Below, piece after piece: positions 32,344 through 32,973 of a DNA stretch of 64,000 nucleotides (position 1 is its first letter; every line of letters begins with the position of its first letter). Where the stretch lies: contig CAISGE010000062.1 in NCBI GenBank assembly GCA_903884815.1, positions 17-64,016 of the forward strand, given 5' to 3'. This DNA is from Candidatus Omnitrophota bacterium (GTDB lineage: Bacteria > Omnitrophota > Omnitrophia > Omnitrophales > Aquincolibacteriaceae). Under the pieces are notes generated by a model, which saw nothing but the letters and a program-made list of their open reading frames with translations, was not told the DNA's origin and ran no database searches. A program made the translations under genes and the position numbers.

Positions 32344-32462
32344 CGCCTTTCATTGTATACTGAACAAGAGAGTGATATAATCCCGGCCGTTTCGGTCCTG
32401 CCCAAGGCGACAAGCTCCATGAAGGGCTGCACCAATTAATAGGAATTTAAGAAGGTGTTATA

Positions 32463-32600
32463 GGGACGTCCCAATTTCATTCTTATAAAATTGAAAATTG
32501 GGACTGTCCCAACGATTCATTAATTTTTTGATTATACGTCGGGGCGTCCTAATTCTCAGTTAACCATGGACGGTGAATGAGGACAGTCCCGATATTCATT
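32463..32600. repeat. Four iterated ~20-bp repeats with a palindromic core GGGAC(N)GTCCC followed by AAYNNTTCATT, spaced about 40 bp apart upstream of tRNA-Pro
   Basis: Copies read directly: GGGACGTCCCAATTTCATT (32463), GGGACTGTCCCAACGATTCATT (32500), GGGGCGTCCTAATTCTCAGTT (32541), GGACAGTCCCGATATTCATT (32581). Confidence 0.7.
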
Positions 32601-32621
32601 GAAAATTTAATTTAAGTTTAT

Positions 32622-32698
32622 CGGGGCGTAGCACAGCCTGGTAGTGCGCTCGGTTCGGGACCGAGAGGCCGTAGGTTCAAATCCTATCGCCCCGACCA
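32622..32698 (+). tRNA. tRNA-Pro (anticodon CGG), CCA encoded
   Basis: Manual cloverleaf: acceptor CGGGGCG/CGCCCCG, D-arm GCAC..GTGC, anticodon stem CTCGG/CCGAG with loop TTCGGGA, T-arm GTAGG-TTCAAAT-CCTAT, discriminator A plus CCA. Confidence 0.85.
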
Positions 32699-32770
32699 TT
32701 TTTTTTTGCGTTGCAATTGAAAGCCGAAGGCTTTCCATAAAGTGAGACGAAAAAATGGGCAGCACCCGAA

Positions 32771-32800
32771 GTCCCGCCGAAGGCGGGACGGAGTGGTGCG
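32771..32800. repeat. GC-rich palindromic element (gtcccgcc-gaag-ggcgggac-ggagtg), related to the REP-like copies at 44211 and 59387
   Basis: Shares gtcccgcc, ggcggga and ggagtg with the two other copies in this window. Confidence 0.45.
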
Positions 32801-32879
32801 ATTGCTTTAGGCGATTCAACACTTGCACCGATGTGCAAGTGCGATGCCGACGCTCCTCAGAAGAGTCGCGTTCGCATCG

Positions 32880-32894
32880 ATCCTATCGCCCCGA
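32880..32894 (+). repeat. 15-bp perfect direct repeat of the tRNA-Pro 3' end (atcctatcgccccga; first copy 32682-32696)
   Basis: Exact 15/15 duplication 198 bp downstream; both copies are followed by a T-run. Confidence 0.8.
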
Positions 32895-32973
32895 TTCTTT
32901 TTTTAAGTAATATCAATAAAATTCTATCCGGTTTTTTCCGGCCGGTTTCCTTCCGTTAGAGGGCAAGACGCCG

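Follow-up and report, generated by a model that had tools for sequence, protein, structure and literature searches.

The tRNA-Pro(CGG) gene in a 64-kb stretch of one Candidatus Omnitrophota genome (the window, which covers part of that genome) is followed on the same strand by 184 nucleotides (nt) that lead into an exact copy of the tRNA's 3' end. Comparison with related genomes indicates that this segment, designated the type A cassette, is a conserved structured RNA and not debris. The interpretation that we favor, and to which we give about an even chance of being correct, is that it is an old, structured noncoding RNA (ncRNA) cassette that is co-transcribed with the tRNA, is bounded by the repeat of the tRNA end, and has been lost repeatedly. 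Upstream of the tRNA are two tandem hairpins, M1 and M2, whose arms had initially been described as four protein-binding iterons.

The comparison set consisted of 30 Candidatus Omnitrophota loci from metagenome-assembled genomes (L001 to L030), gathered via FtsI, in relatives that were 56 to 87% identical. The closest relative, L056, which has an FtsI 89% identical to that of the window, was recovered later among loci anchored on the DUF6485 gene.

Structure and conservation of the type A cassette

The tRNA gene (32622 to 32698, + strand), which encodes its CCA, was identified with ARAGORN and with Rfam (RF00005, 66.5 bits). The segment that comprises the end of the T-loop, the 3' strands of the T-stem and acceptor stem, and the discriminator (ATCCTATCGCCCCGA, 32681 to 32695, + strand) recurs at 32880 to 32894 on the same strand. 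This second copy, the 3' tail of the cassette, matches the first at 15 of 15 nt, as the initial annotation had reported. With the T-runs that follow the copies included, the repeat is 25 nt long and 88% identical. On the left the identity begins in the T-loop, between TTCAA and ATCC; on the right it ends at the discriminator or in the T-run. The T-run after the tail (TTCTTTTTTT, 32895 to 32904, + strand) corresponds in alignments to the native tRNA trailer of L056, L003, and L026, genomes in which the site is empty.

The cassette (32696 to 32879, + strand) was delimited from its fold, its homologs, and covariation. The spacer between the repeats folds at -87.4 kcal/mol, compared with -60.7 +/- 4.4 kcal/mol for shuffled sequences (z = -6.1), in agreement with the earlier suggestion that it is rich in hairpins. 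In helix P0 (32696 to 32708 with 32748 to 32757) the CCA of the tRNA and the U-run (U9) pair with A6UGG. The elements that follow on the + strand are P1 (32716 to 32738), P2 (32771 to 32789, inside 32762 to 32799), P3 (32800 to 32816), a single-stranded TTCAAC, P4 (32820 to 32841), and P5 (32842 to 32879), a large fourth hairpin. Three hairpins had been named previously, and all of them exist (32719 to 32735, which lies within P1, 32771 to 32789, and 32820 to 32841), but the loop of the hairpin at 32771 to 32789 is GAA and not GAAG.

The three type A sequences share P1, P3, P4, and P5, and P2 is variable. Their consensus has 50 pairs, of which 6 are compensatory (for example, a G-C to A-U change in P1 and two double changes in P5), together with several + strand G·U pairs. 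P0 also covaries, with CCA/UGG in the window versus CUC/GAG in L006. This pairing implies that the U-run after the tRNA is base-paired and does not act as a terminator.

The 81-nt domain composed of P4, P5, and the tail is 88 to 94% identical between carriers. For comparison, identities between carriers are 92 to 100% for the tRNA, 71 to 75% for the 5' domain of the cassette, 70 to 75% for the promoter, and 75 to 79% for the last 600 nt of ftsI. These values indicate that the P4-P5-tail domain is probably under constraint like that on the tRNA and that the 5' domain has diverged at about the genomic background rate with its helices kept.

Searches of the window region and 13 related loci against Rfam 15, at the gathering threshold and at E <= 10, returned only tRNA and RNase P; other matches were subthreshold and consisted of microRNA models on generic hairpins. 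Thus the Rfam check that had been proposed yielded no family for the cassette, and within the window only the tRNA reached its gathering score. A coding function for the 51-codon open reading frame (ORF) at 32755 to 32910 was rejected because indels interrupt the frame in the homologs and substitutions compensate within helices. No conserved ORF was found in the 184 base pairs (bp), and no recombinase was found inside or next to the cassette, which is flanked by ftsI, DUF6485, SDR, SpoU, and ligA; the earlier observation that neither an integrase nor cargo lies between the repeats thus holds. A consensus scan of 32200 to 33100, which also missed the promoter of the leader, detected no + strand promoter-like site inside the cassette.

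We propose that a promoter at the ftsI stop codon would drive a single transcription unit comprising a leader of approximately 235 nt, tRNA-Pro(CGG), and a 3' extension, with one precursor running from approximately 32388 to approximately 32905. The cassette, counted with its tail (32696 to 32894, approximately 200 nt), lies exactly between the tRNA discriminator and the native T-rich trailer and ends in its own copy of the T-loop-to-discriminator segment. Co-transcription with the tRNA would be expected because no internal promoter was seen and because the U-run after the tRNA is sequestered in P0. RNase P and tRNA 3' maturation would then free the tRNA, leaving the cassette RNA, and the tail with its U-run would recreate the native 3' end of the unit. 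The strongly conserved P4-P5-tail domain would be the functional core, and the direct repeat would mediate precise loss of the cassette. The single-stranded tail is identical to the 3' strand of the tRNA, and the upstream hairpins, which mimic the acceptor stem, suggest that tRNA-processing or tRNA-binding factors are involved in some way.

Occupied and empty sites and the origin of the cassette

Homologs of the type A cassette were found at the same site only in L024 (the same as metagenome locus L034) and L006 (the same as L033 and L035), which with the window makes three lineages. Fragments are present in L021 (the 5' part) and L011 (the central part). Each full copy starts at the base after the discriminator and ends in ATCCTAT(C/T)GCCCCGA followed by a T-rich trailer. 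The initial annotation had asked whether the locus is empty in relatives, and empty sites with the same flanks do occur in L056, L003, and L026, where the CCCCGA at the end of the tRNA runs straight into the T-rich trailer; the tRNAs of L003 and L026 are identical to that of the window. The trailer after the second repeat copy in L024 is homologous to the native trailers of the empty-site genomes, which implies that the cassette was inserted or deleted precisely. An empty site would read ...GGTTCAAATCCTATCGCCCCGATTCTTTTTTT, and a circle junction would read ...GTTCGCATCGATCCTATCGCCCCGACCATTTTT.

The three carriers are not sister lineages in the FtsI tree; each of them is closer to some relative that lacks the cassette. 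The spacer is not a universal companion of tRNA-Pro and was found in full only in these three lineages. A search for the exact type A core among 241 million metagenome records gave three matches, all at this locus and in the same three lineages, and a search of 2.9 million viral contigs gave none, although divergent copies could have escaped these exact-core searches; the type B and type C cores described below were also absent from the viral contigs. Further loci anchored on DUF6485 yielded no additional type A copy and added the empty site in L056 and a type C copy in L058. Recent horizontal transfer was given less weight, despite the patchy tree, because the 5' domain of the cassette is as diverged as host DNA. 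The pattern of divergence fits long vertical residence with repeated loss, and recent horizontal spread appears to fit it less well. Loss would be easy between direct repeats of 15 to 25 nt, which would explain the patchy distribution. The locus had previously been interpreted as an integration scar, a miniature mobile element, or a co-transcribed structured RNA. The attachment site (att)-like repeat, the precise presence or absence, and a conserved structured RNA were all found, but not an integrase, cargo, a second location, or a viral copy, and the evidence points to long residence rather than to recent mobility.

Two other cassette types were found at the tRNA-Pro locus of relatives. In type B, the first approximately 55 nt of the tRNA, as far as the GGTTC of the T-loop, is fused to approximately 130 nt of conserved structured RNA, and the fusion lies upstream of an intact tRNA-Pro (L002, 5857 to 6042; L004, 6015 to 6208; L013, 1678 to 1867; L018, 5873 to 6032; L026, 6002 to 6190). 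The type B consensus has 51 pairs, 9 of them compensatory, and there is no Rfam match other than the partial tRNA. In L018 a double change preserves the anticodon stem, and the anticodon in the L026 copy is TGG.

Type C cassettes are approximately 155 to 175 nt long, lie downstream of tRNA-Pro, and end in an 18- to 25-nt copy of the T-loop-to-3'-end segment that starts with CAAATCC (L004, 6283 to 6456; L007, 5926 to 6107; L058, 21 to 196). They also contain an internal antisense copy of the same tRNA segment, which varies with the tRNA variant of the host (GTAGTAGGATTTG versus TGATAGGATTTG). An antisense copy of the T-arm that tracks the tRNA variant hints that type C may interact functionally with the tRNA. 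When a segment antisense to the tail was sought in type A, only a weak, inconsistent GYGCGA match was found, in sequence already used in P3. In L007 the tRNA-Pro gene is truncated at its 5' end, with a leader hairpin fused at the D-loop (5840 to 5925), and ARAGORN detects no tRNA; the 3' part of the tRNA and the type C cassette are intact.

Terminator-like hairpins were also observed downstream of the tRNA. In L003, L012, L015, L024, L026, L056, and L061, a hairpin of the form TCGGGACCTGGC...GCCAGGCCC(CGA) with a T-run lies 60 to 150 nt after the tRNA. The sequence that flanks it on the 5' side, GAAAATCGGGG, complements the 3' end and trailer of that tRNA, CCCCGATTTTC, which would give an alternative 10-bp helix competing with the acceptor stem. 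In L023 (5985 to 6270) and L019 (4958 to 5300), at least four tandem hairpin units of approximately 73 nt directly follow tRNA-Pro. The units in L023 each end in GGCCGA followed by CCAATCTC; they are a further type of unit added at the tRNA's 3' end.

Several points weigh against the interpretation of the type A cassette as an old, co-transcribed ncRNA. Co-transcription, processing, and the 3' end are all matters of inference, and the cassette RNA can be assigned to no function. Only three independent type A sequences are available, which makes the covariation statistics thin. The tail, at 15 nt from the last hairpin, does not form a canonical intrinsic terminator, and vertical descent requires many independent losses. 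In addition, the repeat has exactly the extent expected for the att site of an integrase, and two other, unrelated cassettes are joined at the same T-loop in relatives. These two observations point to a process of DNA recombination that an RNA-centered interpretation does not explain.

An unlikely, but not trivial, alternative is that the locus is an inert scar, in which an element with a tyrosine recombinase integrated at the T-loop of tRNA-Pro, replaced the tRNA's 3' end, and was then almost entirely deleted, leaving attL, approximately 184 bp of junk, and attR. The block of identity does span T-loop to discriminator, and filled and empty states are precise. Use of a T-loop as attB is documented for mycobacteriophage Ms6, which integrates in the T-loop of tRNA-Ala (PMC1762012). 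Moreover, phage contigs carry only the 3' 28 to 39 nt of tRNA-Pro, with T-arm and acceptor sequence the same as in the window, next to PF00589 tyrosine integrases (L045, 3950 to 3985, the same as L054; L052, 8998 to 9040); these fragments are likely attP sites. In the L006 lineage the DNA beyond the type A tail is nonsyntenic for at least 10 kb (L033, 1 to 9980, downstream of L006 position 6222, on contigs Ga0265297_10003928 and JBAZER010000011.1) and replaces DUF6485 and SDR and encodes a Cro/CI-type helix-turn-helix protein, a LamG-domain protein, and several ORFs without a family in Pfam or PHROGs, as well as a 194-amino-acid ORF with no homolog on record.

However, junk would not be expected to retain five or six helices through compensatory changes or to hold an 81-nt domain at 88 to 94% identity when neighboring DNA is at 70 to 79%. 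No integrase was found in the flanks of the window that were examined or, with Pfam and PHROGs, in the 10 kb after the L006/L033 copy. The L006 tail (ATCCTATTGCCCCGA) also differs from that genome's own tRNA (ATCCTATCACCCCGA). The tRNA is of the host type, ...CACCCCGA (TCACCCCGA, CA), and the tail reads ...TTGCCCCGA (TG), the converse of the arrangement expected from a T-loop crossover. This pattern fits a crossover at or after CCCCGA or in the T-run, or later mutation. Because the L006 tail is unlike its own tRNA, the tail is best regarded as a part of the cassette that evolves with it, and not as the product of a fresh target duplication or of gene conversion. A further point against a simple integrase origin is that mimicry of the tRNA ends extends to the leader and terminator-like hairpins, which are plainly not mobile.

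Partial tandem duplication of the tRNA could explain this mimicry just as well. It is conceivable, though rather improbable, that unequal recombination on acceptor-stem sequences produced tandem copies of tRNA-Pro whose decay left the leader hairpins, the cassette tail, and, in relatives, the terminator-like hairpins; no mobile element would be involved, and these sequences would have no function of their own. The hairpin modules start with TCGGGRC like the tRNA 5' end and/or end with GYCCCGA, and a T-rich linker resembling a trailer comes next. In L056 the two leader modules stand in the opposite order to that in the window. There is also a possible relic of a T-arm, (T)AGG...TTCAA, 66 nt upstream of the cassette tail. 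Debris of this kind would explain where the termini came from, but neither the 184 nt that are not derived from a tRNA nor the selection that keeps the helices and the P4-P5-tail domain. The cassette itself could have originated either through integrase-type recombination at the T-loop or through partial duplication of the tRNA gene.

More doubtful still is the possibility that type A is an active miniature element, a nonautonomous cassette of approximately 200 bp that moves at the T-loop and 3' end of tRNA-Pro by means of an integrase supplied by a phage or by a gene at another place in the genome. It would account for the patchy occurrence in non-sister lineages, the direct repeats that flank the cassette, the passage of the tail with the cassette into L006, a host whose tRNA is of another variant, and the unrelated type B and type C junctions in the same T-loop. 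On the other hand, the identity of the 5' domain (71 to 75%), set beside that of ftsI (75 to 79%), makes the copies as old as the lineages that carry them. The exact core was confined to this locus in the same three lineages and absent from viral contigs, and no partner recombinase was identified in the window flanks or the L006 island.

Promoter, leader hairpins, and gene context

The order of genes in the window is STAS, rsmH, ftsL, ftsI, tRNA-Pro, DUF6485, SDR, SpoU methylase, phosphoesterase, and ligA. The position of the tRNA had been considered to mark a break in the dcw cluster, as if by a local event, but tRNA-Pro(CGG) is present in 24 of the 30 comparison loci, approximately 20 of which have it 85 to 460 nt after ftsI. 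DUF6485 (32974 to 33168, + strand; PF20095), the conserved downstream neighbor that anchored the comparisons, was found downstream in 20 of the 30 by tblastn. A TTGAAT-N17-TG(A/T)TATAAT promoter immediately follows the ftsI stop codon in most related loci. Thus, the placement of tRNA-Pro(CGG) directly after ftsI, behind a promoter at the stop codon of that gene, is the ancestral state of the clade.

In the window the promoter of the tRNA-Pro unit, as read from the sequence, consists of a -35 element, TTGTAT (32353 to 32358), a 17-nt spacer, and an extended -10 element, TGaTATAAT (32373 to 32381), on the + strand. The consensus scan missed it; its -35 element agrees with the consensus at only three of six positions. 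Transcription probably starts near 32388, which would place all four "iterons" inside the transcribed leader of approximately 235 nt. The first part of this leader (CCGCCGTTTCGG...GCACCAATT..., 32388 to 32456, + strand) is recognizably conserved, with similar sequence after the promoter in L004, L005, L006, L010, L029, and L056. The fold of the window copy taken alone was not significant (z = -0.39).

The palindromic cores of the "iterons" are GGGACGTCCC (32463 to 32472), GGGACTGTCCC (32500 to 32510), GGGGCGTCCT (32541 to 32550), and AGGACAGTCCC (32580 to 32590). As initially described, the four units lie upstream of the tRNA in the same orientation at approximately 40-bp intervals; the core start-to-start distances are 37, 41, and 39 nt. 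The strict form, GGGAC-N0-3-GTCCC, has two matches in the 64 kb, both at the tRNA-Pro locus, with 0.29 expected by chance; at least two strict-core matches occurred in 4 of 100 shuffles. Units 1 and 2 are reverse-complementary to each other over 17 to 19 bp, as are units 3 and 4. The complementarity continues past the 10-bp palindromes, so that the units form two long hairpins.

The first hairpin, M1 (32457 to 32521, + strand, with arms at approximately 32463 to 32479 and 32493 to 32510), matches a covariance model, R1, at 51.7 bits (E = 1.9e-14). It folds at -23.6 kcal/mol (z = -5.8) and contains inverted repeat I6, which is 100% complementary. M2 (32535 to 32601, + strand) matches R1 at 60.6 bits (E = 1.6e-17). 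It folds at -25.9 kcal/mol on the + strand (z = -3.8) versus -18.9 kcal/mol on the - strand, 7 kcal/mol better on the former. At least a dozen relatives have one or two copies of this module, which is approximately 60 nt long, upstream of tRNA-Pro. An alignment of 15 homologous copies gave a 14-bp stem in which 94.3% of cells are paired and nine pairs are changed on both sides. None of 500 shuffles equaled the observed values, and slid controls were 33 to 56% paired. The clearest covariation (G-C/A-U and U-A/C-G, at columns 17/49, 20/46, and 21/45) is in the extension of the stem outside the palindromic cores, a pattern that a model of protein sites would not predict. The module stems contain many G·U pairs on the + strand only; together with the better fold of M2 on that strand, this implies that the structure belongs to the + strand transcript. 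These results indicate that each pair of "iterons" makes up the two arms of one leader hairpin of approximately 60 nt and that the two tandem hairpins would act at the RNA level.

The termini of the hairpins resemble those of the tRNA. The 5' arm of M2, TCGGGGCGT, is the same as the tRNA 5' end, and its 3' arm ends in GTCCCGA, as does the tRNA 3' end. The 5' arm starts with UCGGGGCG(U), which matches the tRNA 5' end including the -1 base, and the GUCCCGA at the end of the 3' arm resembles the acceptor 3' strand plus discriminator. The 29-nt linker that follows a module is like a tRNA trailer. The outer stem of the leader hairpins is a copy of the tRNA acceptor stem (5' UCGGGGC... ...GUCCCGA 3').

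The R1 model was also compared with 312 kb of Omnitrophota DNA (the window, L001 to L030, and L035), and every match was at the tRNA-Pro locus. Among the matches were one copy nested in the L006 cassette and, in L010 and L011, copies that lie inverted on the downstream side of the tRNA. Dispersed repeats of the repetitive extragenic palindrome or miniature inverted-repeat transposable element type were rejected on this basis, with the 312 kb including 64 kb of this genome. The possibility that such structures generally accompany tRNAs here was also rejected; the tRNA-Glu(CTC) locus (at 41837, within window positions 41660 to 41914) is plain, with no hairpin modules and no tail repeats. That locus has a near-consensus promoter (TTGACA-N17-TATACT) and a leader of approximately 120 nt. 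At the tRNA-Pro locus, the regions just after M2 and just after the cassette tail (32591 to 32605 and 32900 to 32914) form a 15-nt inverted repeat that is 80% complementary. It would bracket the tRNA and cassette in the manner of an rRNA processing stem, or it may be a chance occurrence in AT-rich sequence.

It is very improbable that the four GGGAC(N)GTCCC-AAYNNTTCATT units are iterons or operators, that is, phased sites for a dimeric protein controlling the tRNA promoter or replication and partition, because the features that suit such sites (the common orientation, the 37- to 41-bp spacing, the 10- to 11-bp palindromic cores, and a weak direct-repeat similarity, GAT.TTC.AT, after each arm that is also seen in relatives) are outweighed by the conserved, strand-specific pairing of the arms as RNA, with its covariation strongest outside the palindrome, by the location of the units 80 to 210 nt downstream of the conserved promoter rather than over it, by the frequent loss of the 3'-arm palindrome in relatives (for example, AGGACTGCCGCCGA in L029) with complementarity to the 5' arm kept, and by the lack of an adjacent rep, par, or regulator gene.

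Three other features of the surrounding DNA were noted. The genes proB (AA_kinase plus PUA) and proA (Aldedh) are located between obg and nadD at 19640 to 22023 of the window, which places them upstream of the tRNA-Pro unit by approximately 10 kb; their proximity to tRNA-Pro is probably a coincidence. In a groundwater contig (L062, 87 to 1172), a DDE transposase gene is directly upstream of DUF6485 with no tRNA-Pro between. In L021, a more distant Omnitrophota relative, a tRNA-Met followed by RNase P RNA (class A, 183 bits) is present approximately 3 kb upstream of ftsI (397 to 894).

Relation to known systems and implications

The individual features of this locus, namely a repeated tRNA end at a site that resembles an att site and an ncRNA linked to a tRNA, belong to known kinds, and the specific elements are absent from Rfam. 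The sublocations of att sites within tRNA genes have reportedly been classified (Williams, in 2002). As at att sites of the T-loop class, the repeat here runs from the T-loop to the tRNA's 3' end, an intact tRNA is on the left and a partial copy on the right, and relatives are either filled or empty. Unlike at such sites, the insert is 184 bp of structured noncoding sequence in which no integrase or cargo was found, exact-core searches returned no free, viral, or second genomic copy, and the 3' domain is under tRNA-like constraint.

Cis-mobilizable elements (CIMEs) are accreted or decayed remnants that are flanked by att sites at tRNA hotspots, and the genomic islands of Prochlorococcus contain repeated tRNA-Pro 3' ends. 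The type A cassette is similar in being a small, integrase-less DNA within tRNA-end repeats at tRNA-Pro, with a larger island in tandem in L006. To our knowledge, such remnants have not been reported as conserved structured RNAs; here the same folded element has been kept in several lineages.

Small RNAs can also arise from tRNA flanks, as exemplified by 3'ETS-leuZ of Escherichia coli, which comes from the 3' external transcribed spacer (3'ETS) of a tRNA. Like RNAs of the 3'ETS type, the cassette is on the same strand as the tRNA and directly downstream of it, no promoter of its own was seen, and its release by tRNA 3' processing is predicted. The cassette differs in being much larger and more structured, in ending in a copy of the tRNA 3' end, and in its variable presence. 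The t-elements of plant mitochondria and the minihelix or hairpin substrates of RNase P provide tRNA-like processing signals. M1 and M2 are comparable in that they start with U(-1)C(+1)GGGGC and end with GUCCCGA, and thus mimic an acceptor stem extended into a long hairpin. They differ from t-elements in having no mimic of the T-arm or D-arm and in being located in a tRNA leader rather than at mRNA ends, and their cleavage by RNase P or RNase Z is hypothetical.

The unusual aspect of the locus is the combination of a scar-like repeat around a constrained RNA, several cassette types at one T-loop junction, and hairpins that mimic the acceptor stem. A speculative extension, to which we attach little credence at present, is that Omnitrophota exchange integrase-less RNA cassettes bounded by tRNA ends (types A, B, and C and the acceptor-mimic hairpins) at the T-loop/acceptor end of tRNA-Pro(CGG), through recombination that is specific for tRNA structure or guided by RNA, or else that these elements are t-element-like punctuation from which RNase P and RNase Z release small RNAs.

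Phased palindromes beside a tRNA have the appearance of protein-binding iterons, and the leader hairpins described here caution against reading them in that way. Mobile DNA classically inserts at tRNA genes, whose flanks are also emerging as a source of small RNAs; the tRNA-Pro locus described here brings these two themes together. If they are expressed, the elements found here would be new RNA families in a phylum that is known almost entirely from metagenomes, and they may show how integration scars are domesticated into RNA genes or how the enzymes of tRNA processing come to produce other RNAs.

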